A DNA stretch of 54,643 nucleotides, counting the filler, from Jimgerdemannia flammicorona (taxonomy: Eukaryota), in the NCBI GenBank assembly GCA_003990765.1. It is 3 parts of 3 records of this genome, joined end to end, with 100 filler letters (N's around TTAATTAATTAA, not from the genome) between each part and the next. Parts side by side here need not be neighbours in the genome. Positions count along the whole stretch, not along the records: positions 18,250 to 36,397 come from RBNJ01002288.1; 2 more parts are not named here. One strand, given 5' to 3'. The notes under the pieces were generated by a model. It saw nothing but the letters and a program-made list of their open reading frames with translations, did not search any database and had not been told where the DNA came from. Within the stretch, counting starts at the first letter, position 1; the number at the start of each line of letters is the position of its first letter. The position numbers and the translations under genes are program-made. Of the stretch, positions 4,250 to 36,497 are shown one piece after another.

Positions 4250-6291
4250 TGTAAGAGAGTTACTTATAAAAGTACTGTTACATAGTTCTGGAAGAGTTTT
4301 CTGGAAGTTCTGAATATTCTGAAAGACTATTTTCTTTAGGTTAAGATCAATTTTATATAAAGTATATCCTCTATACTTATTGATTTCAAGATTGGGTTAA
4401 CATCTTAACCAAAGTCCTTTTTCAGACTAGTTCTGGAAGTTTAGGATTTTCTGTATTTCAGGAAGTTTAAAAAACTAAGACCAGCTTAGTTGAATTGACA
4501 TATCACTATAGACAATACCCAATTAGGAAATTTTGTAATATGGTTAGAAGTGGAATCTAATGAGGTTTGAATTTACTTAAGAGTGATTTATGGGTTATTA
4601 AATAAGTTTATTTACTATTCATAATATTGCTATACTAGGAGTAGTTGTGTAAAGAGATATTGTGGAGAAGTATTCAGGGGTTATATTCAGATTATTCAAG
4701 TCTAAGTTTCTGAGGTCTGGAGAAGAGAGTATTTATACTAATAGGAGACTATCTGAACTATACTAAATATAGATGTAGCACTTAGTATCTTGCTGAGTCA
4801 GAATGTAGTTATATAGTATAAGTATGAACTGATATATCAAGAGATCATCTGACTGCTAAGTTAATATACAGTTATATCATATAAGATTAATCTAACTATA
4901 CTAATAACTACTAAGCTATCTATAGATTTAGATACTATCTAGATAGTCTTCAATGATATTACTATTGATGATATCATCTCTGATGAAGTAGTTATCTAAG
5001 AAGGGTGGTTCTTGAATTACTTCTCTCTATTCACTCAAATAATAATATATTAGAATCATATTACTATTTTATAGGATAGTATTATCTATCTTATATACTG
5101 GATATGAGTTGGTAGACAAAAGAGGAGTACATTATCTTCACTTTTCTCAGATTTGCTATCTATATATCTTTTGTAGATTATGATACTATATGTTACTGGG
5201 TTGTAGTAAGCTGGTAGCTATACTTTATATCACTTATACTCAGGTGGTATAGTTATTAGTTCAATCTCAGGAGTTGTCTGGAGGTATAGATTATATTCTC
5301 TAGTTTCCTTATTATAGTTAAAGTAATCAGGCATAAATACAGATTAATACTCATACTAGTAGTCATTATCTCAATAGGTCTCATAAGTGGTTATGAACTA
5401 TTGTAAGTTTATTAGTAAGGTTGGCAAAGTGATCAGGACTGGTAAGAATTCTTGGCTAAAGATCATATTGGTGTCAGAGAGATCATTATCTTCTACTTCA
5501 TCATTATCAAACTAGATTATATCATAGATATTCTTTATGGCATATCCAACTTGGGGTATTTGCAAGATATGGTCATCAGAGTGTAGGAAGGTTCTGTCTG
5601 TAGTTTTAATATACTTGATATACTTATGGTTGAGTTCTTGTATTATATTATCAATTTGGCTATAGGACAGAGTGGTAACTATTTCAGTGGTAGTGATTCA
5701 GAGATAGAGAATAATAGTACTATACTTATAAAAGAGTTCTTAATATTTATAAGTAATGAGTTTTTAGTGTTAAGACATCTGGATAATATCTGTATCATAG
5801 TGATGTTCAACTATGTCTTCTAGAAGGCAGCTGATCTGATAGTAGCTTGAGATTTATCTGATTTAGTGAGCTTTGCTGAGTATATTCAGGGTATTCTATT
5901 GGGCTTCTATGAAGTAAAGAGGTGTCAGGCTGTAGATATTCATGAGGGGCAAAGGAGATGTAGCTTGGTTGACAATGGTATTCTAAATGTCAGTACAGAT
6001 GTAGTTATAGATCTTGGTAATTATAGTTGTATATATATTCAAGAGTTGTAGTTGTTTGTTTTGTTTATTGTAGTTCTTCATTTTGATGTATTTAAGTACT
6101 TAGTATATATGTATTTAGTTCTAATTGATAAGATTCCATTTATATAAATCTTGTATTCTGTAACTTCAAGTTAACTTAGCTTTGTACTCTGTAACTTTGG
6201 TTTGACTCAGCTTTGTGATCTTATATGTGATTTTCAGATTTGTTCAGAGAGTAATGTGTGATTTCAGTGGCTTAGAGGTTGTATATTTACA
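4250..6291 (-). repeat. Family-A 3' LTR (~2.04 kb) with degraded internal ORF (~4928-6024)
   Basis: TG...CA termini; colinear with the reverse complement of 31792-33856; PPT immediately upstream on the minus strand. Confidence 0.92.
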
Positions 6292-9200
6292 ACTCTCCCC
6301 TTCTTAGCTTTTGATATTCTCATTAAGATTTTCTAATTTTGATCTAGTATTGTTATACTATTTGGATAGTCAAAAGTTCAGTAATATCTATTTTTCTCAA
6401 AAAGTGGTATACTCAAAGTACAGTTGTCTAATACATTAGATTTATATATTAAAGGATCATATGTTCAATACTGTATACCAGAAGTGATTCTGGTATCATT
6501 CGCTGCTGGAGAGTTTTATCTAAAGAATCTTCTTAAATATCTATATCTCATTTCTCATCAGTAATATGGAGAGAATAGACTGGCTTTCAGTTTTGCTATT
6601 TTTCTAGAGAATCAGTATTCTTTTATCTTGTCTTGCTGAGTTCTTGATTTCATTCATGATAATTATAAGGATACTTGATATTTAGGAGGGATAATATATA
6701 ATATAGACTAATAGATATTAGAGTATTCAGATTTCAGTTGTTCAAGAAATTATATTCTTGAACTAAGTCAGTAGTATTCTAGAGGTTAGTCTTGGGTTCT
6801 CATGTTGCATTATAGATCAGATATTCTTTCCATTTGACAAGATATTCAGAATAGTTCTTGTAGCTATATTTGTTGAGGATTTATTCAACTTTATATTCTT
6901 CTTGATCATTAATAATGACAGATATAGATGGTTTTGCAGTTTAGTTTGGAAATAACTCATTGTTATTTTCATTATATCACTTGAGACTTTGAATATTGAA
7001 GACTGGGTAAATCTTAATGGTATCTAGTAGTACCAATTTATAGAAAGTTGGAGAGACTTGTGCAATAACTTCAAATAGTTTAATAAATTTACTATTCAGC
7101 TTTGTAGATAGTCTGTGCTTAAGGTTGTCAACTTGGTATCCTCAGATATCTAGTAGAACTTTTTCTCTAATATCAAAAGTTTCTTCTTACTGGTACTGAT
7201 TGATATATTATAACTATTGTTCTTGAGCTTGAGATAAATTCTTGATTGCAATCTGACTTAAATTACACATTCAGAGTAGGAATTCTTTGACAGCTTTGAC
7301 AGTAGAGGGTTCATCAGTAGTTTAGATAAGTGTCAGAGAGATGTTTGGATTTTGTCCAGTATTAGTGAAAAATGGAGTCATTATAAGAGAGACTTAGTTA
7401 TCATTATTGTAGACAAACTCAACTGCAATAAGGTGTTCATACCAATAATTTTATCTATAGGAAATATACGTAGTTTCTTAGTATTTGTTCTAGAGTTCAG
7501 TTCATTCTTTCTGTTTGATCATTAGTTTGGAGTAAAAAGCTGTAGATAGTGTAAGTTTCATTCTAAGGTATATATAGAGGATTTTCTAAAAATAGCTAGT
7601 AAATTTCAGATCTTGATTACTAACAATAATCTTGAGAAGATCATAATAGCAGAAAATGTTGTCAAACAAGAGTATAGCTATATCTGGTACTATTGCAGTG
7701 ATAGTAGTTAGTATAAAGTAGACTTGTTTACTGAGATAGTCTATGAAAATAATAATTGTATCTTTCTCATTCTTGGTTTGGGATAGTTGTATAATGAAGT
7801 CTATAGAGATTTATTTTCAATTAGCAGATGGTACTGGAATAAGATAGAATAGACCAGGTTTTTCTAGTATTGAGAACTTGTTACATTAGCAGGTATTATA
7901 AGAAGTGATATAGGTCTTTAGCTAATCTGCCATATGAGGCTAATAGAAGTTTTGGAAAATAACTTCATAGTATTTATCAAATCCTAAATATCTGACTATA
8001 GAGGCATTATAATATTCAAATAGGATAGTTCTTCAGAGGTCTTGATTTTTTAGAACATACAATCTGTCTTTATAATAGATAGTATTATTCTTTAGTTAGT
8101 ATTGATAATACTGGATATACTTGTTAATATCATTACTGCTCAGGATTTCTTAAAGTACTTGAGCTTCTTTATCATCAGCATATGTTGTAATAATTTGTTT
8201 CTTAATAGAGTTGGTAACCAAGGCAAGAGTTTAGATAACTTCTTTAATTGGTAGTCTGGAGATTATATTGAAAACAATATTTTTCTTATTAGAGTAATAC
8301 TGAATTTTATAGTCAAAGTTAGTGAGGACTTTCATCTATCTGGCTTGCTTCTGAGAAAGGGTAGCCTGGGTCTTGATGTTGACTAATGATTTATAGTCCA
8401 TCAGTACTATATTCAAGATAGGATTACCATTTAATCAAAGTGTCTACAATGGCTAACATTTCCTTCTTATAGGTTGTATAGTTGATTTTAGTATCATTGA
8501 ACTTGCAGGAGTGATAGGCCACAGAGTATTCTTCTTACATGAGTACTGTTTCAAGAGCTAGGTCAGAGGCATCAGTAGTAACTTCATAAAGTATGGCAGG
8601 ATTTGCTGCTTGAAGTCCTAGAGTAGTTATCAAGGCATCCTTCAGAGCTTGAAAGGCTGTATCTTATTTAGATCCCCAATTTATAAGATTGTTGAAGTCT
8701 TTTTCTTATTTTGTAGTCTAGGGCTATTCTTCTTTCTTACTATACTTGGTCATTTGAGTGAGAGTAGTAGTGATCTTGGCAAAGTTAGTAACAAATTACT
8801 AATAATAGTTTGCTAGTTCTAGGAATAACTGGAGGTCCATTAACTTCTTAGGTCTGGGCTATTTCTTGATTGTAGAGATTTTACTAGGATCTACTTTAAT
8901 TCTATTGAGAGTAATAATGTATCTAAGGAATTAAATTTCCTTCAGAAAAAATTTATATTTGCTGAGTTTTACAAAAAGTTGGTTTTCTCAGAGCTTCAGT
9001 AGTACTAGTTCAAGATATTCAAGATGTTTCTCTAGGATTTTGCTAAAGACTAGGATGTCATGAATATAGACAACAACAAATTTGTCTAGATATAGATATA
9101 GGATGATATTTATCAGTATCTGGAAGGTTGTAGAGGTATTAGTTAAGCCAAAAGGTATAACTAGAAACTCAAAATATCCATAGCAGATTTGGAAAGCAGT

Positions 9201-11669
9201 CTTGTAGATATCTTCTTCTTTTATGGCAATTTGCTAGTAACTATTTCACAGATCAAAAGAGCTTATAAATTATAAGTTGGTAAGTCTATCAAATATTTCA
9301 TTGATTTAGGATAGTAGATAACAGTTCTTGATGATCTATTTATTGAGATCTTGGTAATCAATATACATTCATAGGCCTCCTTCTTTCTTGATAACAAAGA
9401 GAACTAGTATACTATAGAGTAATATACTAGATCTAATGAATTCTTGTTCTAGGAGTTCATCAATCTCTTTCTTGAGTACATTAATTTCCCTAGAAGACAT
9501 ATGATAGATTGACTTGAAGGCAGGCTTGGCATCTGGAATAGTCTTGATAGTATGGTCTACTACTCATTTAGGTGATAGATCTTTTAGAAGTTTCTTTGGG
9601 AATATATCTCAGAATTTCTAGAGTAAGGGTCTGATATAGCTGTCTACTTTGGAAAAGTCTTCTTTAAGGGTTTTCAATTCTTCTTTGGATGGGTAGATAG
9701 AGATAGCAAAGAGAGGGTATTTCTTGGCCAATTTCTTGAGTTGTAGCTTATTGATGTGGGTAATCTTTGAGCCAGAGTCACTAGAACTGAGTGGGTCTTT
9801 TTTGTCTTACAGTTTGAAATTATGGTATCTCTTCTTAATGGTTAGAGAATGATTTATCCAATTGATCATAAGGTTCTCTTATTTTAATCATGAGGTCTCA
9901 AGGATGATTTCATTATTAGAGAGTAGTATAATCTTGAGTATAATATATACTCAGTAGTCACTAATTTAGAAGAGTAGGTTGTGAACTTCCTTGCTAATGA
10001 TATGTGAGATTCTATCAGCTATAGTAACTGCTTGAGTCTATTATACTAAAGAGGTCAGAACCTTGAGTCTGTTGGCTGTTTCTTTATTAATAAAGTTACC
10101 TAAGGCACTACTGTCTATTATAATCTTAATAACTTAGAGTATAAGCAGTTTGTCTGATCTAATGATAATGATTTCAGTTATAAGAGCTTTTCTTCTATTG
10201 GTTCTCCTTTGGACCAGTTCATTGATACAAGAGAAGCAATCATTGATTATTCAGGAAGAGTATATTTCAATACTATGGGGGCATTAGCCACTTAGTACAA
10301 ATCTATCTTCGATTTTCTTGTAGAATTGTTCTTGTTTATAGTGAGTTAGGCTGAGACTTTATTTGATAAGCCAAATTCTCTGGGTCCTCAAATGGTAGGC
10401 AGTAGTTCAGAGACTTTCTTGACTATCAGAGTTGATTTAATTTTCTTGAATAGGATCTAGTGATATAGAAATCAATAGAAATCTTGAAGAGTATTCAACT
10501 ATAGTTTTAAATAAGGATAATGATTTTGTCTATATAATTTTCATCAATAACTCCTCCTTCTACTGAGAGTCCTTTCAATGCTAGGCTACTATGATAGTAT
10601 ATTCTTTCAATATATCTTTCAGGTATTTGAATACTGATTTCTATATAGACTTACTTAACTTCTCAGTTGGAGACTATGACTTCTTCAGCTAAATATAGGT
10701 CATATCTAGCTACTTTTTGACTTTTTTTAGTTGGGACCTTAGCAGTTGGCCTTAACTTGACAAAGTCTAGTATTTTGGTAGTCAGATTGTTAAGATGGTG
10801 CAGAGTGATAACAGTTGCTTATATTGCTATTTAGAGTTTTCAGTTAGGATAAGTACTGGCTATGTGTCCTGTCTTTTGGCAATAGAAGTATACTCCACTT
10901 CTACAAAGTTCATTTCTTTCTCCTTTAGTGAGTTTCTTAAAGATACTTAGCTAGATAGGTTCAGAATTTTTGGAGTGTCCAAGAGGTAGATATGGAGGGA
11001 ACTCAAGATGCTTCATATTTGAATTAGTCAAAGTTTTTTCCTTATTGTTGAATTATCTTCAAAACAGAATTGGTCCAGCTATTAGAATTCACTTGACCAT
11101 AGTCTTGATTCTTGTCAGGTACTATTGTTAGTAATTACAACCAACTGAGTGTCCTTATTCTTGGATTTTTCTTATAAGCCATTCAGGTAGTATATCAAAT
11201 AAATGATCTGCTCTTATACCATTTCATACTTCATTATTAACAATATATTCTAGACCAATAGTATTCAGGAGTGACTCAAATTTTATATAGAAGGTTTTAA
11301 ATTTCTCCTTGTCATATATATCAAATTTGAGATTTTTGAGTTTTATTCAAGATTTGGTAATTAGAGTTTTGCTATAGTATTGAGCAATCATGAGTTATTT
11401 GAGTCTAGGGGCTGTAGGATGGTTTCCATATTCTGGGGTATTATTTGCTATATTTTGGGTAATAACTGCAGGTCAGGTATCCTATATTAGAGATTTTTCA
11501 GAAAGGGTTCACCACTATTCTTCAGCAGATTCTTGAAAGAATATAATAATTTGACAGATATAGGCTGTAGAAGTAGTAAAGAGTTGTTCCAGAGTATAGT
11601 CTTAATTATTTATCAGAAGGCAATCAGTAACTCACTCATTGGTCCATTAGTTGACTTTAAAATTAGTAT
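4250..11669 (-). mobile_element. Ty3/gypsy chromovirus family A, copy A1 (3' LTR, pol, part of gag; 5' end lost at the A2 junction)
   Basis: Minus strand: gag, CCHC knuckle (~10850-10900), dUTPase (~10370-10780), protease, RT (VVYIHDIL ~9060), RNase H, integrase, chromodomain EEYKVE.ILNK..EYLVKWKEY..NAT.EP (~6770-6905), PPT aagaaggggagag, then LTR. Confidence 0.93.
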
Positions 11670-11856
11670 TGTAAGGACTGGCCATTCTTGTCTAGGGCAA
11701 GTATAAGCACACAACCTCCAAGTCACAGAAATCATATGTCACCCTTTGAACAAGCTACTGAAACCACACATGACCTCTGAACAAATCTGGAAATCATCTG
11801 CTTGATCATAAAGCTGAGTCAAACCGAAGTCACAGCACACAAAGCTGAGTCAACAC

Positions 11857-12480
11857 TAGTGCTCCTAACGAGTCAATTTAATCCAGATTGGATTCAGATT
11901 GATTCGGATTGAATCCCATCCAAATCAACTCGGATGGGATTCGAATCAACCATTGTTTTGATTTCCAAATTAGATAATTAAATATTTACATCAATAAATC
12001 AATGAATAATCATCCAAATTTGATGATCTTAGTGTCATTTGAAAGCCCTTAATAAGGCCTATCTAATGATACCAAGAACATTGAAATCCGATCATGTGTT
12101 GCTGAGTTATGAAGGAACCCATCTGAATCGCCGATTTTGGAAATTCTTCGATTTGCCGATTTTGGAAATTTCGTCAAATAGAACATTTTCCTTAATATAT
12201 CGGTAACACGTAATCCGATTTTAATTTTCTTGATAACATTAGAAAGGCCTTATTAAGGGCTTTCAAATGACACCAAAATCATTAAATTTGGATGATTATT
12301 CATCGAGTTATTGATGTAAACATTTAATTGTCCAATTTGGAAATCAAAACAATGGTTGATTCGAATCCATCTGGATGGGATTCGAATCCAATCTGAGTTG
12401 ATCTGGATGGGATTCGAATCCAATCCGAGTTGATCTGGATGGGATTCGAATTCATCTGGATTGACTTGTTCAGAGCACTA
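11857..12480. mobile_element. hAT-family foldback MITE inserted in the A2 LTR
   Basis: Ends TAGTGCTC...GAGCACTA; 8-bp TSD GTCAACAC at 11849-11856 and 12481-12488; long internal inverted arms; GATTCGAATC-type subterminal repeats. Confidence 0.93.
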
Positions 12481-12892
12481 GTCAACACAAAGTCATGGAA
12501 TACAAGATTCACACAAATGAAATATCAGGACCAAATACATATATATTAAGCACTAAGACATGTTGAAACAAAGAACCAAAAAAAACAACAACCACAACTT
12601 CTGAACATATACAAACATGACCACTGAGATCTATAATCGCATCCATGCTGATATTTGGAATATCATTGTCAACTGAATCACACTCCCTCTGCCTCTCATG
12701 AATATCCATAGCCTAGCACCTCTCTACTTCATGGAAGCCCAATAGAATACTCTGAACATACTTAACAAGATCCACCAGATTGGACAAATCTCAAGCTACT
12801 ACCAGATTGGCTGCCTCCTAGAAGATATGGTCAAACACCACCATAATACAGACATTACCCAGATATCTCAACACCAGAAACTTATCACCTAT

Positions 12893-13156
12893 CCCTTAGA
12901 TGGTAATGCAGCCAAATATGGCTGCAAATTTTTGAAAATTCATAAGTCTGAAAATAATAATAACTTTTCAAAAATATTTAAATTATTGATTTTTTATATA
13001 TTTTTTTACCTTTGGGTAAAATTTTATATAAAAATAAAATTTTGAATTTAGATGAATTGAGTTATATTTCTAACAGAAAATGTAAACTTGAAAAAATCAG
13101 ATTTTCTCAATTAAAAAATCACTGCTTAAAAGACGTTCCCATATACCATCTAAGGG
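12893..13156. mobile_element. MITE with CCCTTAGATGGTA TIRs and 2-bp AT duplication (CMC/EnSpm-like)
   Basis: AT|cccttagatggta...taccatctaaggg|AT. The empty site acc-tat-aaa-tac is visible in the sister LTR at ~21676. Confidence 0.8.
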
Positions 13157-16100
13157 ATAAATACTGAGAACTTTTTTATAAGTACAGCACCTTTATTCCC
13201 CATCTCCAAGTTACTATCAGCAAAATGGTTACTACTCTATCTTATGGCCAAATCAACAATATGATATAAGAACTCAACCATAAGTACCTCGAGTATATCA
13301 AGACTACAGACAGAACCTTCCTACACCCCAATGACCATATTCTGCAAATGCCTCAAGTCAGATATACTATGAAGGATGTCTATGATATAATCTGATTCAA
13401 TGAAGACAAAGCAGAAGACAATAATCCCTCTAATGCTGACATGACCTCAAGTCAAGAATCTCTACTAACTCTGATCATACCACCAACCTTGCTGATGAAC
13501 TTACAATAGTTCATAACTATATATGAGACTTATTGGGACAATAACCACTAGCATGAATACTAACCCACATTTACCTCTGATTACTTCAACTATAATGAAG
13601 AGACTAGAGAACACAATCTATACCTTCAGACAACCCTCAAGATAAAACCAACAACTCTACTATCTGAGTATGAATAACATGAACCATAGCCACCAACTTA
13701 CTACAACCCTGTGACTTATAGTACTGTAACCTATAGAAGGTATGCAGATAGTAAATCTGATGAAAGTGAAGATGATGCACTACTCCTTCACCTACTAACA
13801 TCTTATCCAGCATATGAGACAGATGATGCTATCCTATGGGATAGTGATGAAGTCCTAATGTATTATTATCTCAGTGAATAAGGAGAAGTAATCTGCAAAT
13901 CATTCTTAGACAACTACTTTATCAGAGATGATATCATTGATAGTGATATTATCGAAGACTACCCAGACAGTATCTAAATCTATAAATAGCTTAGCAGTTA
14001 TAGTATAGTTATATTAGCCTTGTATGATATGACTGTGAACTGACTCAGCAGTCAGACAATCTCTTGACATATCAGATCACACTTGTACTATGTGACTGCA
14101 TTCTAACTCAGCAAAGTATATACTAAGTGCTACACTCATATCTAGCATAGTCCAGATAGCCCCTCACTAGTATAAATATCCCCTCCCCCAGACCTCAGAA
14201 TCTCAGACTTGAACAGACTCAAATACATAAGAACAATCCTGAATACTTCCCCACAATATCCCTTCACACAACTACTCCTAGTATAGCAATATCATGAATA
14301 GTAAATAAACCTATTTAATAACCTATAAACCACTCTTAAGTAAATCCACTCTCTATTAGGTCTCACTCCTAACCCCATCATGAAATTTCCTAATTGGGTA
14401 TTGTCTGCAGTGATATGCCAATTTAACTAAGCTGGTCTTAGTTTCTTGAACTTCCTGAAATACAGAAAATACTGAATATCTAGAACTAGTCTGAAAAAGG
14501 ACTTTGGTTGAGATGTCAACCCGATCTTGAAATCAATAAGTATAGAGGATATACTCTATATAAAATTGATCTTGACCATAAGAAAACAGTCTTCCAGAAT
14601 ATCTAGAACTTCCAGAAAACCCTTCCAGAACTATGTAATGGTTATCCTAAAAAGCAACCCTCTTACAACTTGATAGCAGCAGTTTACAATCCAATTCTGC
14701 TTCAAGATACTTCCTCACCCCACTACAAACCCCTCTGAGAATTTCTACAAGTTGGTATAAAGCCCAACCTCTGAACTAGAATTTATCCTGAACTATCTGA
14801 CAATCTGGAGAGAATTGAACCTAATGTACAAGAACAATTTGACCTCTATATCTGCAACAAGTAGAACAAACTTCATTCAAAGAAAGAAATACTCCAGTTA
14901 AATCAGAAAATAGGTGAAACCCTATTTACCAAACTCCTTGCTCTATACCCAGTAAGTTAAGACAAAGAAGGTCTTATTGAAGCCTTCTTTACTCTTCTCA
15001 ACAAGAGTTTTGTCAGCTCCACAAATCTAAGTGACCTAGGACAATCAGCAGCAGTCTTTTTAGTCTTAGTTCCTTACAAAGCTCAAGCCTCTGTAGCCAA
15101 GTGGCTCAACTCTACCGACTTTCACTATATCAGGACCAAGACTATATTATACTATCAATTTCAGAACAGCAAGGCCTGCTATATTCTTAAAGAAGAAGTA
15201 AGAGAAACCCTTCATCAACTATCTGATCCTGAACCTGAAGTAGGCCCTACTACAACTCTACCTGAATCTGAAATCAACACTGAACCAGAACTTGACTTTG
15301 AATTAAGTTCATCTGAAATCAGATATACAACTGATTCTATCTACTTCAATGCTAAGCAAACCCAACTATATGGGGATCAAACTGAAGAGGAGGAGAAGTA
15401 TCTTAGTGAATTCGATCCTGGATACACTACCAAAGAAGATGCACCTCCATTAGGCCAGAACATACCTACACAGCAACAAATAGCTATCTATCAAGCCCTC
15501 ACTCCAGACCCACAACTACTACTTCAGCAACTTACACAGACCCAAAGAACACCCTCACACTTTACACCAGTACCTCAAGTAGTACCAGTAATACCACTAC
15601 TAGTAGTTTAACCACCTCCAGTAAACAACATAGTAAACCAACAGATTCTAGACCTCATAGCCTAGGTGCAATAATGGTAGCAACCATTACTGTCTTAGCT
15701 GAACAGATCTGACCTACCAAAAATCTGAGCCTACCTATCTTCAATGATACTGTATAAGAAGTCCAAAGCTTTATTAGTATAGTTGATACTAACTTTGAAG
15801 TCAATCAATAGACCAATGAGCAAGTTGCTGACCACCTTCTGACAAACAATCAAGACCACACTCTGGAACAACTCTTTGCTACTACTATGGCCTATGTCTG
15901 CTGAGTTATTCCATTCTTCTAAGGACCTGCTGAAGAATGGTGGCAAACCCTTTCTGAAAAACCCCTCACATGAGATACCTGACCTACAGTAATTGCTCAG
16001 AATGCAGCAAACAATACCCCAGGATATAGAGCCCATCCTGCAGCCCCTGGACTCAAACAACTCATGATTGCCCAATACCACAGCAAAATCATGATTACTA

Positions 16101-18149: not shown

Positions 18150-18249
18150 NNNNNNNNNNNNNNNNNNNNNNNNNNNNNNNNNNNNNNNNNNNNTTAATTA
18201 ATTAANNNNNNNNNNNNNNNNNNNNNNNNNNNNNNNNNNNNNNNNNNNN
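18150..18249. other. Artificial contig linker
   Basis: N runs around TTAATTAATTAA (stops in all six frames). Confidence 0.97.
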
Positions 18250-21162: not shown

Positions 21163-24100
21163 TGTATAAGTATGTAATATTACTCTCAGAACCCATTTAG
21201 AAACTATATGTAAGATCATGAAGCTAAGTCAAACTGAAGTTATAGATTACAAAGCTGAGTTAACTTGAAGTCATGAAATATAAGATTTATAAAAATAGAA
21301 TCTTACTAATTAGAACTGAAAGTATATATACTAAATATACAGATATATTGAAATAGAGAACTACAATAAACCAAACAACTATAATTCTTGAATATATATA
21401 TAAACATGACTATTGAAATCTATAATTACATCTGTATTAATATTTAGAATATTATTATCAACTAAGCTACAACTTCTCTATCTCTCATAAATATTCATAG
21501 TCTAGTATTCCTCTATTTTATGAAAGCTCAATAGAATATTCTGAATATACTCAGCAAAGCTTACCAAATCAGACAAATTTCAAGCTACTATCAGATCAGC
21601 TATCTCCTAGAAGATATGGTTAACTACTACTATAATATAGATATTACTAAAATATCTCAATACCAGAAACTTATTACCTATAAATACTGAGAACTTTTCT
21701 ACAAGTATAGTATCTTTATTCTCTACCTCTGAGTTACTACTGCTGAAATAGTTATTACTCTATCTTATGACCAAATTGATGATATAATATAAGAACTTAA
21801 CTATAAGTATATTGAGTATATCCAAACTATAGACAGATCTTTTCTGTACCTCAATGATCATATTCTGTAAATGTCCCAAGTTAGATATACTATAAAGGAT
21901 ATCTACAATATAATTTAGTTCAATAAAAATGAAACAAAAAACAATGATCTCTCTGATGTCAATATGATCTCCAGCTAAGAATCTCTATCAACTCTAATCA
22001 CTTTATTAATCTTACTGATGAACTTACAATAGTTTATAATCACCTATAAGACCTATTGAGATAATAACCACTAGTATAAGTACTAACTTACATTCACACC
22101 CAATTACTTCAACTACAATGAAGAGACTAGAGAATATAACTTATATCTTCAGACAACTCTCGAAATTAAACTAACAATCCCACCTCTTAAGTATAAACAA
22201 AATGAATTGCAGCTGCTAGCATATTATAACTCTACAATCTATAATATTATAATCCACCAAAGATATGCTAACAGCAAATCTGATGAAAGTGAAATAATAC
22301 ATCTCTTCTCTATCTACTAATACTCTATCCAGTATATGAGACAGATAACATCATTCTATAGAATAGTAATATGATTCCAACCTACTACTATATAAATAAA
22401 TAAAGAAATATCATCTAAGAACTACTCTTCTTAGATAACTATTTTATTAAAAATAATGTCATTGATAGTGATCTCATTGAAGAATATCTAGACAGTATCT
22501 AAATTTATAGATATATAGCTTAGTAGTCTTTAGTATAGTTAGATTAGTCTTATACTATATGACTATATACTGAATCATCAGTCAGACAATCTCTTGATAT
22601 ATTAGTTCACACTTATATTATATAACTATATTTTGACTGAGTAAGGTACTAAGTATTATATTTATATTTAGCATACATAGTCTAGATAGCTCTCATTAGT
22701 ATAAATATCCACTCTTTCAGATCTCAGAAACTCAGATATAAATAGATATAAATAGACTTAAACAGACAGAAACATAGATAAGAACTCCTGACCACTTCTC
22801 TACAATATCTCTTTACATACTACTTTTAGTATAGTAATATTATAAATAGTAAATAAATCTATTTAATAATCTATAAATTACTCTTAAGTAAATTTATATT
22901 CTATTAGGTCCTACTTCTAACTAAATTCTGAAATTTCCTAATTGGGTATTGTCTACAGCAATATATTAATTAAACTAAGCTGGTTTTAGTTTCTTAAACT
23001 TCCTGAAATACAGAACCTCCTGAATATTTAGAATAAGTCTGAAAAAGAACTTTAGTTAAGACTAGTACTTTTAATAAATCAAATTAAATTAAATTGAACC
23101 CAAATTCAATTTGATTCAAAAACTTCAAATCAAATTAAGGCCCAATTTGATTCAAATCAATTTGAATTGAGGTCTAATTCAATTTGAATTTCAATTCAAT
23201 TTGAATTTTAATTCAAACCTAAATATTTTAAAATTCAATAACTTGATGAAAACATGTTCAAATTTAATCATCATTATTGTACTAGATTCACCTTATTAAG
23301 GCAAATCAAACAAGCTAAAATATATCAAATTTGGATATATTTTCATCAAGTTATTGTATTTCAAAGTTTGACTTCAAATCAGATCTCAATTCACAAATCT
23401 AAATTTTTGAAATTAAATAACATGACAAAAACATGTCTAAATTTAATGATCTTTATTGAACTGGGTTCACCTTATCAAGGTGAATCCAACAAGCTAAAAT
23501 ATATCAAATTTGGATATGTTTTCATCATGTTATTATATTTCAAAGTTTGACTTCAAATCAGATCTCAATTCATAAACCTAAATATTTGAAATTTAATATC
23601 ATGACAAAAACATATCCAAATTTAATGATCTTTATTGTACTGGATTTGCCTTATCAAAGCAAATCCAACAAGCTAAAATACATTAAATTTGGATATGTTT
23701 TTGTCAAGTTATTATATTTCAAAGTTTGACTTCAAATCAGATCTCAATTCATGAACCTAAATTTTTAAAATTCAATAACCTGATGAAAACATATCTATAT
23801 TTAATAATCTTTATTATACTGGATTCGCCTTATTAAGGTAAATCTAACAAGCTAAAATACATCAAATTTGAATGTGTTTTTATTGAGTTATTGTATTCTA
23901 AATTTTAATTTTCAATTTCAAATTGAATCAGATCTCAACTTTGAACCTAAATATTTAAAATACAATAATATGATGAAAATATGTTCAAATCTAATGATTT
24001 TTATTATACTGGATTCACCTTGTCAAAGTGAATCCAATAAGCTAAAATATATCAAATTTAGACATGTTTTCATTGAGTTATTATATTTCAAAGTTTGACT

Positions 24101-24345
24101 TCCAATTTCAAATCAAATCAGACCTCAATTTGATCCAATTTGATTTGAACTCAATTCAATTTGAAACACTCTTAATTTGATTCAATTTGAATTGATTCAA
24201 TTTGTTTAGGATTACTAGTTAAGACATTAATCTAATCTTGAAATCAATAAGTATAAAGGACATACTCTATATAAAATTAATCTTGACCTTAAGAAAATGA
24301 TCTTTCAGAATATCCAGAACTTCCAGAAAACCCTTCCAGAGCTAT
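21163..24345 (+). repeat. Family-A LTR, heavily mutated, with ORF remnant (~21406-22502) and a MITE insertion; 3' tip replaced by another element
   Basis: Starts TGTATAAG; colinear with 31792-33825. Confidence 0.9.
23063..24217. mobile_element. hAT non-autonomous element carrying five tandem ~180-bp palindromic units
   Basis: TAGTAC...TACTA ends; TSD GTTAAGAC at 23055-23062 and 24218-24225; units at ~23215-24100. Confidence 0.88.
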
Positions 24346-24480
24346 CCCTTAGGTCATTGGCATCCACAGGCAAATTTGCCTGCAAATTTCGCCACATGAT
24401 TCACGTGATATAATCAACCCCCATTGGTCAGAATTTGGTGACATCATCCATATCTTCATAAATACACCCCGCCATATGCC
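24346..24480. mobile_element. One end of a second CCCTTAG-terminated element
   Basis: LTR homology stops at ..gctAT|CCCTTAGGTC; caaatttgcctgcaaattt parallels caaatatggctgcaaattt of the 12893 MITE. Right boundary approximate. Confidence 0.5.
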
Positions 24481-24614
24481 GTATACCACTCAGGTTAACA
24501 CTCAAACACATAGTTGTAGTACTTCTTCTGGTATTATTGTATCTTGGCAGTAGGTTCTCATACTTGCTGGTATATTTTGTATAACCAGATGATCTCTTCA
24601 GTAACTTGTTTTGT

Positions 24615-27600
24615 AGTCTTGCATATGGTTTCCAAATTGGTTCTGAGGATGATATACAATTTTGGTGGCTTAGAGATTGTGCACTTACAACTCTCTCCTT
24701 CTTAGCTTTTAACATCTTCATCAGAGTCTTCTAATTTGTTCTAGTATTGTTGTACCATTTAGATGGTTCTTGTAGCTGTATTTGTTGAGAATTTGTTCAA
24801 CTTTGTATTCTTTTTAGTCATTAATAATGATAGGTATAGGTGGTTCTATAGTTTGGTTCAGAAATATGTCTCAGACTTTCTGAGATAAGAATCTAATATA
24901 GCTGTCAACTTTGGAAAAGTCTTCTTCAGAGTTCTCAGATTCTCCTTTGGATGGACAGATAGAGATGGCAAAGAGAGGGCATTTCTTAGCCAATTTCTTA
25001 AACTATAGCTTATTGATATAGGTGATCTTTAGTCCAGGGTCACTAGAGCTGAGTGAGTCCTTTTTACCTTATAGTTTGAAGTTGTGGTATCCTTTCTTGA
25101 TGGTCAGAGAATGGTTTACCCAATTGATCATAGGGTTCTCTTATTTCAATAATAGAGTCTCAAGGATGATTTCATTATCAGGAAGTGATACAATTTGGAG
25201 GGTAATATGTACTTGGTAGTCACCAATTTGAAAGGGTAGATTGTAGACTTCCTTGCTAATAACATGTGAGGTTCCATCAGCTGTGGCAACTGCTTGAGTT
25301 TGTTGTATCAGAGAGGTGAAGACCTTGAGTCTGTTAGCTGTTTTTTCATTGATAAAGTTGCCTGAGGCATCACTATCTATCATAATTTTGACAGGTGCTC
25401 AGTTGACAAAAGCTTGAAGTATAAGCAGTTTGTCTAATCCAATGGTAGTGATTTCAGTTATAAGAGCTTTCCTTCTATTGGTTCTTCTTTGAGCCAGTTC
25501 ATTGACATAAGAGAAATAATCATCAATTATTCAGGAAGAGTACATTCTAATGCCATGGAGACATCAGCCACTTGATACATATCTGTCTTCAATTTTCTTG
25601 TAGAATTATTCTTCTTTGCTTATGGTAGGTTGGGTTGGGGCCTTGTTTGATGAGCCAAATCCTTTGGATTCTTGGATAGTAGGCAGTAGTTCAGAGACTT
25701 TCTTGACTATCAGAGTTGACTCAATTTTCTCAAATAAGATCTGAGTAATACAGAAACCAATAAGGATCTTGAAGAGTATCCAACTATAGTTTTAGATAAG
25801 GACAATGATTTTGTCTGTATAATCTTTATCAATGACTCCTCCTTCTACTGAGAGTCCTTTTAATGCTAGGCTGCTGTGACAGTATATTTTTCCAATATAT
25901 CCTTTAGGGATTTGGATGCTGATTTCTGTGTAGACTTGCTTGACTTCTTGGTTGGAAACTGTAACTTCTTCAGCTGTATACAGATCATATCTAGCTACCT
26001 TTTGACTTCCTTTGTTTGGGGCCTTGGTAGTTTGTCTTAACTTGATGAAGTCCAGTGTTCTAGTGGTCAGGTTATTGAGGTGGCGCAGAGTAGTAACAGT
26101 TGCTCATGTTGCTGTTCAGGGTTTTCAGTTAGGGCAGGCACTGGCCATATATCCTATCTTATGATAATAAAAGTATGCTTTACTTCTTCAAAGTTTATTT
26201 CTCTCTCCTTCAGTGAGTTTCTTGAAGATACTCAGCTGAGTAGGTTCATGATTTCTGGGTATCCATGAGGTGGATGTTGAGGGAGCTCAGGATATCTCAT
26301 ACTTGGGTTCTTCTTTCTTGGTCCAAGTTTTTTCCTTGTTATTGAATTATCTTTGGGGCAGAATTGGTCCAGCTATTAGAATTCACTTGATCATAGTCTT
26401 GATTCTTGCCAGGCACTATTATTGGTAATTATAATTAACTGGGTAGTCTTATTCTTGGATTTTTCTAGTAAGCCATTCAGGCAGTGCATTGAATAGATGG
26501 TCTGCTCTTGTATCATTTTGTGCTTTGTCATTGGCAATATATCCTAGGCCAATGGTATTTAGGAGTGATTCAAGTTTTGTACAGAAAGTTTCGAATTCTT
26601 CCTTGCTATATATATCAAATTTGAGGTTGCAGAGTTTTACTTGATATTTGGCAATCATGGTTTCACTGCAGTATTGAGCAATCATGAGTTATTTCAGCCC
26701 AGGGGCTGCAGGATGGGCTCTATATCCTGGGGCATTGTTTGCTATATTATGAGCAACTACTATAGGTCAGGTGTCTCATGTGAGGGGTTTTTCAGAAAGG
26801 ATTCACCACTATTCTTCAGCAGGTCCTTGGAAGAATATAACAACTCAGCAGACATAGGCTCTAGTGGTAGTAAAGAGTTGTTCCAGAGTGTGGTCTTGAT
26901 TATTTGTCAGAAGGTGGTTAGCAACTCACTCATTGGTCCATTGATTGGCTTTGAAGTTGGTGTCAACTATACTAATGAAGCTTTGGACTTCTTGTACAGT
27001 ATCATTGAAGGTAGGTAGGCTCAGATTTTTGGTAGGTTGGGTCTGTTTGACTAAGGCAGTAATGATTGCTGCCATTATTGCTACCTGAGCTGTAAGGTCT
27101 AGAATCTGTTGATTTACCATATTATTTACTAGAGGTAGTTGGGCTACTAGTAGTAGTATTACTGATACATACTACTTGAGATACTGGTGCAGAGTGTGAT
27201 GGAGTTCTTTAGATCTGTGTAAGTTGCTAGAGTAATAGTTGTGGGTCTGGAGTGAGGGCTTGATAGATAGTTGTCTATTACTGTATAGGTGTATTCTGTC
27301 CTGATAGAGGTATGTCTCCTTCAGTAGTATATCTGAGATTAAATTCACTGAGATACTCCTCCTCTTCTTCAGCTTGGTCCCTATATAGTTGAGTTTGCTC
27401 AGTATTGAAGTAAACAGAATCAATTATATGTATATCTGATTTCAGATAGACTTAATTCAAAGTCAAGTTCTGATTCAGTATTGGTTTCAGGTTCAGGTAG
27501 AGCTATAGTGGGGCCTGCTTCAGGTTCAGGATCAGGTTGTTGATAAAGAATTTCTCTTGCTTTTTCCTTAAGAATATGGCAGGCCTTGGTATTCTGGAAT

Positions 27601-28822
27601 TGGTAGTATAGTGCAGTCTTGGTTCTAGTATGGTGAAAGTCAGTAAAGTTGAGCCACTTGGCTATAGAGACTTGGGCTTCATAAGGAACTAAGACTAGAA
27701 AGACTGCTGCTGGTTGTCCTAGGTCACTCAGATTTGTGAAGCTGACAAAACTCTTATTGAGGAGAGTAAAGAAGGTTTCTATAAGACCTTCTTCATCTTG
27801 ACTTGTAGGATGTAGAGTAAGGAGTTTGGTAAATAGAGTTTCATCTATCTGCTGATTTAATTGGAGTACTTCTTTCTTTAAATGAAGTTTGTCTTACTTG
27901 TTACAGATGTGGAGATCAAATTGTTCTTATACATCAGATTCAATTCTCTCCAGATTGTCAGATGGTTCAGAATAAATTCCAGTTCAGAGATTGAGCTTTA
28001 TACTAACTTGTAGGAATTCTCAGAGGAGTTTGTAGCAGGGTGAGGAAGTATCTTGAAGCAGAATTAGATTGTAAACTACTGCTATCAAGTTGTAAGAGAG
28101 TTACTTGTTAGAGTAATTATTATGTAGTTCTGGAAGGGTTTTCTGGAAGTTCTGGATATTCTGAAAGACTGTTTTCTTAAGGTCAAGATCAATTTTGTAT
28201 AGAGTATATCCTCTATACTTATTGATTTTAAGATTGGGTTGATGTCTGAACCAAAGTCCTTTTCTGGACTAGTTTTGGATATTTAGGATTTTCTATATTT
28301 CAGGAAGTTTAAGAAACTAAGACCAGCTTAGTTGAATTAGTATATTACTGCAGACAATACCCAATTGGGAAATTTCATGATGGGGTTAAAAGTGGGACCT
28401 AATGGAGAGTAGATTTACTTAAGAGTGGTTTGTAGGTTATTAAATAGGTTTATTTGCTATTTATGATATTGCTATACTAGGAGTAGTTGTGTGAAGAGAT
28501 ATTATAAAAAAGTACTCAGGAGTTATATTTGGATTGTTCAAGTCTGAGATTCTAAGGTCTGAGAGAGGGGGTATTTATACTAGTGAGGGGCTATCTAGGC
28601 TATGCTGAATATGGATATAGTACTTAGTACCTTACTGAGTCAGAATATAGTCATGTAGTACAAGTGTGATCTGACATATCAAGAGATCATCTAACTGCTG
28701 AGTTAGTTCACAGTCATATTATATAAGGCTAATCTAACTATACTATGACTGCTAAGCTATTTATAGATTTAGATACTGTCTGGATAGTCTTCAATGACAT
28801 CACTATTGATGATATCATCTCT
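24615..28822 (-). mobile_element. Family A copy A3, internally deleted (no RT, RNase H or integrase)
   Basis: Partial 5' LTR 28091-28822, PBS, extended gag, dUTPase (~25650-26060), protease MIDSDASGNFI. A junction at ~24865 jumps to the chromodomain start and one at ~24765 jumps to the pre-PPT region. The 3' LTR starts at 24689. Confidence 0.9.
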
Positions 28823-31791: not shown

Positions 31792-33856
31792 TGTATAAGC
31801 ACACAACCTCCAAGCCACTGAAATTATATATTACCCTCTGAACAAGCCACCGAAATTACACACGACCTTTGAATAAATCTGGAAATCACCTGCTTGATCA
31901 TGAAGCTGAGTCAAACTGAAGTCACAGCATACAAAGCTGAGTCAATACGAAGTCACGGAACACAAGATTTATACAAACAGAATCTTACCAATCAGGACTA
32001 AATGCATATATACCGAGCACTGAGATGCATCGAATCAGAGAACCAAAACAAACAACACCACAACTTCCAAAATACACAAACATGACCACTGAGATCTACA
32101 ACTGTATCCGTGCTGACATTTGGAATGCCATTGTCAACCGAGCCACACCCCCTCTGCCCCTCATGAATATCCATAGCCTGGCACCTCTCTACTTCATGGA
32201 AGCCCGATGGAATGCCCTGAACATGCTTAGTGAGGCCCACCAAATCGGACAAATCTCAAGCTACTACCAGATCAGCTGCCTCCTAGAAGACATGGTCAAA
32301 CACTACCATGATACAGACATTACCCAGATATCTCAACACCAGAAGCTCATCGCCTACAAACATCGAGAACTCTTCTATGAGTACAACACCTTTATTCCCT
32401 ACCTCCGAGTTACTACCAGCGAAATGGTTGCTACCCTGTCCTATGGTCAAATCGATGACATGATATAAGAACTTAACCACAAGTACCTCGAATACATCCA
32501 GACCACAGACAGAACCTTCCCACACCCTGATGACCATATCTTGCAAATGCCTTAAGTCGGATATGCCATGAAGGACATCTATAATATAATCCACTTCGAC
32601 AAAGATGAAGCAGAAGACAATGATCTCTCTGACACTGACATGACCTCTAGCCAAGGATCTCTGCCAACCCTGATCACTCCGCCAACCTTGCTGATGAACT
32701 TACAATAGTTCATAACTACATACAAGACTTATTGGGACAATGACCACTGGTATGAATACCAACCTGCATTCACCCCCGACTACTTCAACTACAATGAGGA
32801 GACTGGAGAACACAACCTGTACCTCCAGACAACCCTGGAGATTGAACCAACCTCCCCACCACCTGAGTACGAGCGACATGAACCACAGCCACCAGCTTAC
32901 TACAATCCTGCAACTTATAGTGCTGTAATCTATAGAAGATATGCAGATAGTAAATCAGATGAAAGCGAAGACAATATATCCATCCTTCGCCCACCAACAC
33001 CTTATCCAGCATATGAAACAGATGATGCTATCCTGTGGGATGAAGATGAAGTCCCAATGTATTACTACCTCAGCCAACAAGGAGAAGTAATCTGCAAACT
33101 ACTCTTCCTAGATGACTACTTTATTAGAGATGATGCAATCGATGGTGATGTCATCAAAGACTACCCAGATAGTGCCTAAACCTATAAATAGTCTAGCAGT
33201 CATAGTATAGATAGATTAGCCTTGTATGATGTGACTGTGTACTGACTCAGCAGTCAGACGATCTCTTGACATGTCAGATCACACTTGTACTACGTGACTG
33301 CATTTCGACTCAGCAAGGCACTTAGTCCTACATCCATATTTAGCATAGTCCAGATAGCCCCTCACTAGTATAAATATCCCCTCCCCCAGACCTCAGAATC
33401 TCAGACTTGAACAATCTGAACACAACTCCTGAATACTTCCCCACAATACCCCTTTACACAAATACTCCTAATATAGCAATATCATGAATAGCAAATAAAC
33501 CTATTCCATAACTCACAAACCACTCTTAAGTAAATCTGCTCCCTGTTAGGTCCCACTCCTAACTCTGTCACGAAATTTCCTAATTGGGTATTGTCTGCAG
33601 CGATACGCCAATTCAACTAAGCTGGTCTTAGTTTCTTAAACTTCCTGAAATACAGAAAATCCTGAACATCCAGAACTAGTCCAGAAAAGAACTTTGGTTG
33701 AGACATCAACCCGATCTAGAAACCAATAAGTGTAGAGGACGTACTCTATATGAAATTGATCTTGACCATAAGAAAACAGTCTTCCAGAATATTCAGAACT
33801 TCCAGAAAACCTTCTAAAACTACATAACAGCTACCCTAAAAAGTAACCCTCTTACA
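31792..33856 (+). repeat. Family-A 5' LTR, 2065 bp
   Basis: TGTATAAG...CTTACA; TATAAAT at 33369; AATAAA at 33494. Confidence 0.93.
32082..33179 (+). pseudogene. LTR (U3)-internal ORF, 365 codons, unknown product
   Basis: ATG to TAA in one frame (MTTEIYNCIRADIWNAIV...DGDVIKDYPDSA*) with three in-frame stops. Two read CAA in sister LTRs; TAG at 32706 is shared by all four copies covering it. Confidence 0.75.
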
Positions 33857-33859
33857 ACT

Positions 33860-33874
33860 TGGTAGCAGTGGTTT
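33860..33874 (+). promoter_or_regulatory. Primer-binding site, probably tRNA-iMet
   Basis: TGGTAGCAG 3 nt after the LTR CA; mutated equivalents at 14671 and ~28075-28087 (minus). Confidence 0.75.
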
Positions 33875-35879
33875 ACAATCCAATTCTGCTTCAAGACACT
33901 TCCTCACTCCACTACAAACCCTTCTGTAAATTCCTACAAGTTGGTATAAAGCCCAACCTCTGAATTGGAATTTATCTGAACCATCTGATAATCTGGAGAG
34001 AATTGAACCTGACATATAAGAACAATTTGACCTCCATACCTGCAACAAGTGGGATAAACTTCATTCAAAGAAAGAAGTACTCAAGTTAAACCAGCAAATA
34101 GGCAAAACTCTATTCACCGAACTCCTTGCACTATACCCAGCAAGTCAAGATGAAGAAGGTCTTATTGAAGCCTTCTTTACTCTTCTCAACAAGAGTTTTG
34201 TCAGCTCCACAAATCCGAGCGACCTAGGACAACCAGCAGCAGTCTTTCTAGCCTTAGTTCCTCATGAAGCCCAAGCCTCTGTAGCTAAGTGGCTCAACTC
34301 TACTGACTATCACCATACCAGGACCAAGACCGCATTATACTACCAATTCCAGAACAGCAAGGCCCACCATATTCTCAAAGAAGAAGCAAGAGAAACCCTT
34401 CATCAACTACCTGACCCCGAACCTGAAGCAGGCCCTGCTACAGCTCTACCTGAATCTGAAACCAATACCAAACCTGAACTTGACTTTGAATTAAGTCCAT
34501 CTGAAATCAGATATACAACTGATTCTGTCTACTTTGACATCGAGCAAACCCAATTACAGGGGGACCAAACTGAAGAAGAGGAGGAGTATCTCACCGAATT
34601 TGATCCCGGATATACCACTGAAGGAGACACATGCCCATCAGGACAGAATACACCTACACAGCAACAAATAGCTATCTATCAAGCCCTCACTCCAGACCCA
34701 CAACTACTACTCCAGCAGCTTACACAGACTCAAAGAACCCCATCACACTCTGCACCAGTATCTCAAGTAGTACCAGTAACACCACTACCAGCAGTCCAAC
34801 TGCCTCCAGCAATCAACATGGCGAACCAACAGATTCTTAACCTCACAGCCCAAGTAGCTATAATGGCAGCAACTATCACTGCCTTAGCTGAACAGACCTG
34901 ACCTACCAAAAATCTGAGCCTACCTACCTTCAATGATACTGTACAAGAAGTCCAAAGCTTCATTAGTGTAGTTGACACCAACTTCGAAGCCAATCAATGG
35001 ACTAATGAGCGAGTTGCTAACTGCATTCTGACAAACAATCAAGACCACACCCTGGAACAACTCTTTGCTACCACTACAGCCTATGTCCGCCGAGTTGTTA
35101 CATTCTTCCGAGGACCTGCTGAAGAATGGTGGCGAACCTTTCCTGAAAAACCCCTCACATGAGATATCTGACCTGTAGTAGTTGCTCAGAATGCAGCAAA
35201 CAATGCCCCAGGATATGGAGCCCATCCTGCAGCCCCTGGACTCAAATAACTCATAATTGCTCAATATTACAGCGAAACCATGATTGCCGAATCTCAAGTA
35301 AAACTCCACAACCTCAAATTTGATGTATATGGCAAGGAAGAATTCGAAACCTTCTGTACAAAACTCAAGTCACTCCTGAACACTGTTGGCCTAGGATACA
35401 TTGCCAATGATGAAGCACAAAATGGTACAAGAGCAGACTATTTATTTGATGCCCTGCCTGAATGGCTTACTAGAAAAATCCGAGAACAAGGCCGCCCAGT
35501 TGGTTGTGATCACCAACAATAGTGCCTAGCAAGAATCAAGACCATGGTCAAGCAAATTCTAACAGCTGGACCAATTCTGCCCCAAAGGCAATTTAACAAC
35601 AAGGAAAAGACTTGGACTAAGAAAGAAGAACCCAAGCATGAAGCATCCCGAGCTCCCTCCACATCCACCTCTTGGACACCCAGAAATCCTGAACCCACCC
35701 AGCCCAGTACCTTCAAGAAACTTATGGAAGGCGAAAGGAATGAACTTCAAAGAAGTGGAGCATGCTTCTATTGCCGAAAGACAGGACATATGGCCAGTAC
35801 CTGTCCTAACCGAAAACCCCGAACAGTAATATGAGCAACTGTTACCACTCTTTACCACCTCAACAACCTGACCACCAGA

Positions 35880-36290
35880 ACACTAGACTTTGTCAAGTTA
35901 AGACAAACTGCTAAGGCCCCAACCAAAGGAAGTCAAAAAGCAGCTGGATATGATCTGTATACAGCCGAAGAAGCTACAGTTTCTAACCAAGAAGTCAAAC
36001 AAGTCTATACAGGAATCAGTATCCAAATCCCTGAAGGACATGTTGGAAGAATATGCTGTCGCAGCAGTCTAGCACTGAAAGGACTCTCAGTAGAAGGAGG
36101 AGTCATTGACGAAGATTATACAGGCGAAATCATTGTCCTCATTCAAAACCACAGTTGGACACTCTTTAAGATCCCTATTGGCTTCTGCATCACCCAGATC
36201 CTATGAAAAAATCGAGTCAACCCTGACCATCAAGGAAGTCCCTGAACTACTGCCCACCATCCGAGGATCCAAAGGATTTGGCTCATCAAA
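35880..36290 (+). pseudogene. dut: dUTPase domain of the family-A polyprotein (between NC and PR)
   Basis: AAGYDL, RSSLALKG, GGVIDEDYTGEI, ITQIL, RGSKGFGSS: the five trimeric dUTPase motifs. Confidence 0.93.
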
Positions 36291-36397
36291 CAAGGCCCCA
36301 GCCCAACCTACCATGAGCAAAGAAGAACAATTCTATAAGAAGATCGAAGATGGATATGTACCAAGTGGCTGATGCCCTCATGGTATTGGAATGTACT

Positions 36398-36497
36398 NNN
36401 NNNNNNNNNNNNNNNNNNNNNNNNNNNNNNNNNNNNNNNNNTTAATTAATTAANNNNNNNNNNNNNNNNNNNNNNNNNNNNNNNNNNNNNNNNNNNN
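36398..36497. other. Artificial contig linker
   Basis: N runs around TTAATTAATTAA. Confidence 0.97.

Follow-up and report, generated by a model that had tools for sequence, protein, structure and literature searches.

A probable accessory gene inside the long terminal repeat of a decayed chromovirus from Jimgerdemannia flammicorona

The 54.6-kb stretch of Jimgerdemannia flammicorona DNA examined here (hereafter the window, along which all positions are counted) is a nest of decayed repeats, among which the long terminal repeat (LTR) of a Ty3/gypsy chromovirus, designated family A, contains a frame of 365 codons. The reading preferred here, to which a probability of about 70% is given, is that the unique 3′ region (U3) of this LTR holds a genuine accessory gene that was functional in the active ancestors of the element and has since decayed in the window. 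The gene would encode an orphan acidic protein, expressed from the LTR as a cassette and acting in trans.

The family A LTR measures 2,065 bp in copy A4, and five copies of it were recognised within the window by self-BLAST and MAFFT alignment (Table 1). The frame could be aligned in all four full-length LTRs (A1, A2, A3, and A4), as the original prediction, made from the sequence alone, had held for every family A LTR long enough to cover it. In A4, it extends from the ATG at 32082 to the TAA at 33177-33179, 365 codons without the frameshift whose absence had also been predicted, and is interrupted by three internal in-frame stops, TAA at 32466, TAA at 32553, and TAG at 32706. The copies of the frame in A1, A2, and A3 are not frame-clean: A1 and A3 each carry a 1-nt deletion, A2 carries a 266-nt insertion together with a 3-nt deletion, and the internal in-frame stops number 17 in A1, 11 in A2, and 16 in A3. 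The earlier statement that the first two A4 stops are CAA in A1 and A2 is correct for 32553, where A3 reads CAA too, but not for 32466, which is CAA in A1 alone and TAA in A2 and A3. An extended start at the ATG of 32025 was considered and rejected, because the copies carry indels at 32053-32071 and the outside relative P0006, described below, begins at the methionine of 32082.

The frame is found in 5′ LTRs (A4 and A2) as well as in a 3′ LTR (A1), and what precedes A4 and A2 is not pol; the frame therefore belongs to the repeat and not to the internal region. Its place between the LTR start at 31792 and the proximal TATA box at 33369 supports, in agreement with the original prediction, a gene that lies wholly inside the LTR and within U3, upstream of that box. 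The TATA-box sequence TATAAATA occurs a second time at 33183. Sequencing data in the form of assembled contigs, including two small runs guessed to be RNA, gave further hints on the limits of U3. In these two runs, the summed contig depth jumps from ~12-23 to ~330-1590 in the bin 33401-33481, one contig has library-adapter letters immediately before 33421, and one contig has loose letters before 33419 that match an LTR stretch ending near 33515, a weak hint for the repeated region (R). A transcription start ~45 nt past the TATA box, near 33421, is thus hinted at; this point is downstream of the frame, which would accordingly fall within U3. In the same two runs, the frame is covered thinly or not at all against the deep cover of 33401-33724, an observation which speaks neither for nor against the gene since contigs cannot rank expression.

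All copies in the window are dead, C>T/G>A decay having broken the LTR gene and gag-pol alike, and it is to this decay that the internal stops of the copies are attributed. Across the four copies of the frame, 407 of the 451 variable columns are pure C/T or G/A, with the order of preference CpG > CpA > CpC > CpT; the damage is lightest in A4 and heaviest in A3. The pattern fits a process like repeat-induced point mutation (RIP), though the deamination of methyl-cytosine gives a similar picture. The per-copy C>T rates, 0.38-0.75 at CpG versus 0.15-0.60 at CpA, are unlike those of classical Neurospora RIP, which attacks CpA first.

The test for past coding selection was made proof against such decay by counting only those columns of the four DNA copies that hold both a purine and a pyrimidine, namely transversions. 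Forty-four transversion columns fall within the frame, distributed 15/2/27 over the three codon positions (chi-square p = 2e-5), while the non-coding LTR at 33180-33855 and the 5′ part of the LTR, taken as controls, gave 13/14/14 and 5/4/9, respectively. The gag-dUTPase region, compared in three copies, gave 7/10/21. Synonymous changes account for 23 of the 44 transversions against an expectation of 15% (binomial p = 9e-9), and the same test applied to the other five frames returned p = 0.37, 1.0, 0.73, 0.02, and 1.0. With 21 non-synonymous changes over 1856 sites and 23 synonymous changes over 328 sites, the transversion-based ratio of non-synonymous to synonymous rates (dN/dS) between window copies is about 0.16, well below the value near 1 between subfamilies that the original prediction had named as damaging to its case. 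The non-synonymous changes are mostly conservative, E/D exchanges being seen five times and I/L exchanges three times.

Two further properties of the frame point in the same direction. Distinct indel sites number 4 in its 1098 nt, compared with 8 in the preceding 290 nt and 12 in the following 677 nt, that is, 3.6 per kb as against 18-28 per kb in the flanks. A least-mutated state was also composed by retaining C or G wherever any of the four copies retains it; in this state, frame +1 keeps one internal stop, the shared TAG, while the other five frames keep 15, 19, 5, 21, and 19. A genome-wide, C>T/G>A-corrected consensus had been proposed as a check of the frame, and the version of it drawn from the four window copies is accordingly open but for one stop. 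From the transversion and indel tests, it follows that the differences between copies were filtered for protein function. Codon periodicity, together with a synonymous excess confined to frame +1, bears out the claim of a protein-coding gene and supports, as far as comparison of the copies can, its having been under past purifying selection and functional in active ancestors. An antisense gene was rejected on the same ground, the synonymous-excess test being specific to frame +1.

Relatives of the predicted protein were sought by a word-indexed search of 5.8 billion protein clusters and by an HMMER profile search of 1.84 billion representatives. The sole match of similar length in the former was P0002, a protein of 247 aa without any stop from a 998-nt ENA contig, which matches residues 115-364 of the frame with 64% identity (81% positives, two small gaps) and has Q in place of all three A4 stops. 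A search for shorter forms added P0006, a JGI protein of 128 aa that is 88% identical, shares the start MTTEIYN, and ends at the position of the 32466 stop. The profile search, in which the profile comprised the 247 C-terminal positions, returned P0002 only, and none of 925 candidates proved to be a longer or fused form, which is weak evidence. Among JGI metagenome contigs, 339 matches to the protein patterns were obtained, none of which was confirmed by tblastn, and a 24-nt pattern conserved in the LTR had no match. The protein thus appears to be a narrowly spread orphan with two relatives found; gene calling usually masks repeats, so absence from such collections says little.

The product had been described as having a helical N-terminal half and an acidic, Pro/Tyr-rich C-terminal half. 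The latter stands by composition, as residues 171-365 contain 41 D+E versus 10 K+R, 29 aromatic residues, and 19 prolines, with an isoelectric point of 4.05; the former is seen in low-confidence prediction only, in which residues 1-170 are helical and a model of residues 1-128 shows five helices at a mean predicted local distance difference test score (pLDDT) of 54.6. An acidic, aromatic tail of this kind resembles acidic activation domains in composition. No hydrophobic segment was detected in the protein, the maximum Kyte-Doolittle mean over 19 residues being 0.95. The two PPxY motifs reported for A4, of the late-domain kind bound by the WW domains of Rsp5/Nedd4 ubiquitin ligases, are present, PPPEY at residue 260 and PPAYY at residue 270, but they are not kept in P0002, which has PLSEY and PLAYY at those sites; the differences are of the C>T type, and an ancestral PPxY is possible. 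The idea that the protein might be a duplicate of the gag or dUTPase of the element was discarded, the best comparison having E = 3.

The extent of the product depends on how the TAG at 32706 is read. The original prediction had cautioned that the true product might end there, at 208 aa, or need programmed readthrough; the TAG is indeed present in 4/4 copies, and the chance that independent decay would change one CpA site in all four is 0.014. The chance looks different when every site at risk is considered, since the per-copy, per-context C>T rates lead one to expect 0.92 stops common to all four copies over 28 at-risk codons. Furthermore, P0002, the sole outside relative spanning the site, has Q at this position and runs on for another 155 residues, and it is beyond the TAG that the codon-position signature is at its strongest (9/1/22). 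Because of these three results, neither a 208-aa product nor programmed readthrough is needed, and both are considered improbable; the matter is largely resolved in favour of the TAG being a probable decay product of CAG and not a designed stop. An intron ending at this TAG was tried and rejected, as no donor-like site is present and the frame of P0002 is continuous there. The view that there was never a gene, only a chance frame or cis-acting conservation of the LTR, could draw on the conserved regulatory DNA that LTRs contain and on the N-terminal third of the frame, where transversions are few (5 in 384 nt) and a cis element could fit. It is very hard to reconcile with a three-base periodicity and synonymous excess specific to frame +1, with a frame that is open in the least-mutated state, and with two independent gene calls on other records (P0002 and P0006), and is regarded as highly improbable. 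A passenger relic, namely a host or foreign fragment captured into the LTR of one lineage without any role for the element, would explain why an orphan without any domain has two relatives among so many clusters and representatives and why all copies are broken. Strong purifying selection between copies is unexpected for such a passive passenger, a relative only 64% identical keeps the frame open, and a longer or fused host form was not found, though this last is weak evidence. In strand composition, the frame (A 0.33, C 0.28) moreover resembles gag (A 0.34, C 0.27) and not the host-like open reading frame (ORF) at 1083-2060, and a passenger origin is thus given little credence.

The route of expression is the less settled part of the preferred reading, that of a selected accessory gene in U3. 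Under the usual scheme of LTR replication, a gene situated between the polypurine tract and R would travel in the 3′-terminal part of the genomic RNA, and reverse transcription would copy it into both LTRs in each cycle. It is proposed that each LTR would be a self-contained cassette. A candidate promoter in the distal U3, with two TGAGTCA motifs and a TATATA at 32007 that are retained in the other copies after allowing for C>T and G>A changes, lies ~75 nt upstream of the ATG and may drive the ORF; the AATAAA of the LTR at 33494 would terminate the transcript of the gene, and the proximal TATA box at 33369 would drive the genomic RNA. The protein would most likely serve the element in trans, regulating it or working as an adaptor by means of its acidic, aromatic tail. 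Alternatively, translation of the same gene might draw on a subgenomic RNA, spliced or otherwise, of the full-length transcript, with no distal-U3 promoter at all. A gene within U3 is carried at the 3′ end of the genomic RNA in any case, the subgenomic route is that of MMTV sag and HIV nef, and the window shows no enrichment of the distal promoter motifs. No conserved acceptor-like signal is seen upstream of the ATG in the four copies, the 60 nt before the ATG bear indels in every copy, and no such splice joint was met among the contigs of four runs, which cannot exclude one; this route is accordingly thought unlikely, if not negligibly so. A more ambitious extension of the cassette reading is advanced only tentatively, at less than even odds. 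It envisages a layout like that of complex retroviruses, in which each LTR would be an autonomous gene, equipped with its own promoter, 365-codon ORF, and poly(A) signal, whose trans-acting product would represent a new protein family, two such genes would be present per full element, and solo LTRs would be dispersed coding genes able to serve or police the family.

A number of points weigh against the reading of a once-functional accessory gene and its LTR promoter. The comparison comprises four DNA copies and two outside proteins, and every window copy is broken by 3 to 17 internal stops, so that present-day function here is excluded. The four copies could owe their shared TAG to a master copy that already bore it. 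Given the C>T-type L/S at its PPxY prolines, P0002 could be a lightly decayed copy in its own right, and its open frame would then be weaker evidence. Neither the window protein (P0001) nor P0002 matches any Pfam family at E <= 10. The whole protein was modelled at a mean pLDDT of 31.8, and no confident fold was obtained from it or from the N-terminal 128 aa. Foldseek against the PDB gave, for a low-confidence model, generic helical bundles only, with a best E = 0.84 and none at E <= 0.001. Structure prediction followed by Foldseek, which had been suggested as a way to place the protein, therefore failed to do so. The ESM Atlas model of P0002 (pLDDT 0.39) likewise gave no usable match, and the best hit of a PDB sequence search (E = 0.52) was unrelated; with no Pfam family, PDB relative, or confident fold, the protein is as unrecognised now as when first noticed. 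As to the promoter assignment, TGASTCA is not significantly enriched window-wide, with 16 occurrences versus 9.8 expected and 7/100 shuffles reaching at least 16.

The identity of the host element is on firmer ground. Internal regions were translated with X at each stop and then scanned with Pfam. In the A4 copy, zf-CCHC (E = 1e-4) and dUTPase (E = 4e-27) were detected, while the minus-strand copy, read from 11699 to 6292, gave RVT_1 (8e-19), RT_RNaseH_2 (5e-18), Integrase_H2C2 (1e-4), SH3_Tf2-1 (8e-9), and Chromo (6e-7); an aspartic protease was detected by Pfam in the A2 and A5 copies. The domain order of family A is hence gag(CCHC), dUTPase, protease, reverse transcriptase, RNase H, integrase, and chromodomain. 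Family A is a Ty3/gypsy chromovirus in which a dUTPase separates the gag zinc knuckle from the protease; the original prediction had called it a chromovirus, and reverse transcriptase, RNase H, integrase, SH3_Tf2-1, and chromodomain were indeed found in the expected pol order. The structural marks are also in place, comprising direct LTRs with TG...CA ends (in A4, TG at 31792 and CA at 33856), a polypurine tract ahead of the 3′ LTR, and a primer-binding-like site beyond the 5′ LTR. The polypurine tract, AAGAAGGGGAGAG, stands before A1 and after the chromodomain. The primer-binding-site-like TGGTAGCAGTGG is at 33860-33871, 3 nt beyond A4, and the same 3-nt spacing is seen after A2; both LTRs terminate in ...TTACA and are followed, 3 nt on, by TGGTAGCAG... 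and then gag.

Genes in or near U3 are otherwise known mainly from complex retroviruses. In mouse mammary tumour virus (MMTV), an env-bearing vertebrate retrovirus, the sag gene specifies a type II membrane glycoprotein. Family A resembles MMTV in possessing a complete frame of roughly 320-365 codons that is wholly in U3 and hence in both LTRs of the provirus, and differs from it in that the window protein has no sequence relation to sag and no hydrophobic segment and comes from an env-less chromovirus of fungal type. The nef gene of human and simian immunodeficiency viruses (HIV/SIV) and bel/bet of foamy viruses are 3′ accessory genes that extend into the LTR and whose products work in trans for the virus; they merely overlap U3, starting upstream of the polypurine tract, whereas the family A gene is entirely downstream of it and has no sequence or fold relation to either. 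A frame within or overlapping U3, the hallmark of such retroviral genes, is therefore found in family A, but homology to sag, nef, or bet is not, whether by Pfam, the PDB, or Foldseek.

Genes beyond gag-pol in LTR retrotransposons offer a different comparison. The additional ORFs (aORFs) of plant elements and the brtn gene of a fungal element typically occupy the internal region, either the stretch from the 5′ LTR to gag or that from pol to the 3′ LTR, and are frequently antisense. The family A ORF, in contrast, is sense and inside the LTR, and is duplicated with it at both element ends. Both the plant aORFs (PMC7264820) and brtn, an antisense gene of Botrytis Boty/BcGypsy1 (PMC8365987, citing Zhao et al. 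2011), are extra ORFs of unknown function. Comparable in kind are the dUTPase-bearing fungal chromoviruses of Tuber (Tmt1), Phanerochaete, and Postia (PMC2864245), family A also being a Ty3/gypsy chromovirus with a dUTPase; in the part of that paper available, an 'add. ORF' appears in one figure legend and no ORF inside an LTR is mentioned. The 'LTR ORF' of PMC12037069 denotes polyprotein ORFs, and PMC1560396 is unrelated. Full-text literature searches, subscription papers not being covered, returned MMTV papers and unrelated uses of the terms but no report of a gene inside an LTR for retrotransposons of fungi or plants. The arrangement is one otherwise known mainly from complex retroviruses, here with an accessory ORF in the retroviral U3 position of a chromovirus.

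LTRs are usually treated as non-coding promoter and terminator modules and are masked before gene calling, and solo LTRs are usually counted as inert scars; if the gene is accepted, these too could be coding. A selected U3 gene in a non-retroviral element would mean that accessory genes in the position of sag and nef are not confined to vertebrate retroviruses, and retrotransposon biology would gain a new protein family. The case also serves as a worked example of past selection being detected under heavy RIP-like decay by means of transversions alone.

Table 1. Coordinates of the family A features in the window.
Feature	Position	Strand	Remarks
LTR-borne gene	32082..33179	+	365 codons + stop; broken in A4 by stops at 32466, 32553, and 32706
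A1 LTR	4250..6291	-	3′ LTR of minus-strand copy; gene at 6024->4928; preceded by polypurine tract; pol domains upstream
A2 LTR	11700..14667	+	5′ LTR; 632-nt foldback insertion and 266-nt insertion; gene at 12617-13977
A3 LTR	21163..24345 (end approximate)	+	1163-nt insertion with 179-nt tandem array; gene at 21406-22502
A4 LTR	31792..33856	+	5′ LTR with TG...CA ends; self-BLAST and MAFFT alignment; copy cut by N run at 36398
A5 LTR	28091..28822	-	Partial; proximal LTR and final ~55 nt of gene, then gag-dUTPase-protease on minus strand
Candidate distal-U3 promoter	31907..32012	+	TGAGTCA at 31907 and 31938; TATATA at 32007
Proximal TATA box of LTR promoter	33369..33376	+	TATAAATA; conserved in all five LTR copies
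Inferred U3	31792..33418	+	TATAAATA at 33369; contig-depth rise and adapter letters before 33421
Inferred R	33419..33515	+	AATAAA at 33494; contig hints
Inferred U5 (unique 5′ region)	33516..33856	+	Remainder of LTR to terminal CA
Internal region of minus-strand copy	6292..11699	-	dUTPase, reverse transcriptase, RNase H, integrase zinc finger, SH3_Tf2-1, chromodomain; Pfam on read-through translations
gag (CCHC zinc knuckle) and dUTPase of A4 copy	34020..36397	+	Pfam; few stops; ends at N run 36398-36497

Several of the family A copies have been altered by later insertions or losses. The 632-nt insertion of A2 (11857-12479) is foldback-like, resembling a miniature inverted-repeat transposable element (MITE), with terminal inverted repeats beginning ACTAGTGCTCC and arms at 11937-12117 and 12188-12368 that are 88% complementary. 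The 266-nt insertion of the same copy, at 12892-13165, is AT-rich and interrupts the LTR gene. Similar terminal letters recur beside another LTR copy at the end of a contig from run X14. In A3, the 1163-nt insertion contains, at 23214-24106, a tandem array of a 179-nt unit in 4.9 copies with an 83% match and short flanking repeats of the AATTTGA type, and looks like another non-autonomous insertion; the final ~30 nt of this LTR have no homology to the other LTR copies. In the A5-linked copy on the minus strand at 24346-28090, the protease is almost directly followed by a chromodomain-like stretch, …EYKVEQILNKYSYKN…, which suggests an internal deletion from reverse transcriptase to integrase. 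The N runs at 18150-18249 and 36398-36497 each end a chromovirus copy (A2 and A4, respectively) ~2.5-3.5 kb past its 5′ LTR, and each is made up of 44 + 44 N bases around 12 identical-looking bases.

Elsewhere in the window, a Pfam match to Symplekin_C (E = 3e-31) lies at about 18970-19670 on the plus strand, between the N run and A3, and is split over two frames; it marks a host gene, probably with an intron or frameshift. A 232-nt inverted repeat (2610-2841/3971-4202, 96.6% identity) brackets ~1.1 kb beside the end of A1 and may form the inverted termini of a young DNA transposon. An unrelated second family of repeats, with 68-75% identity, is present at 38856-39231/51378-51747 and 42695-43586/53484-54351.

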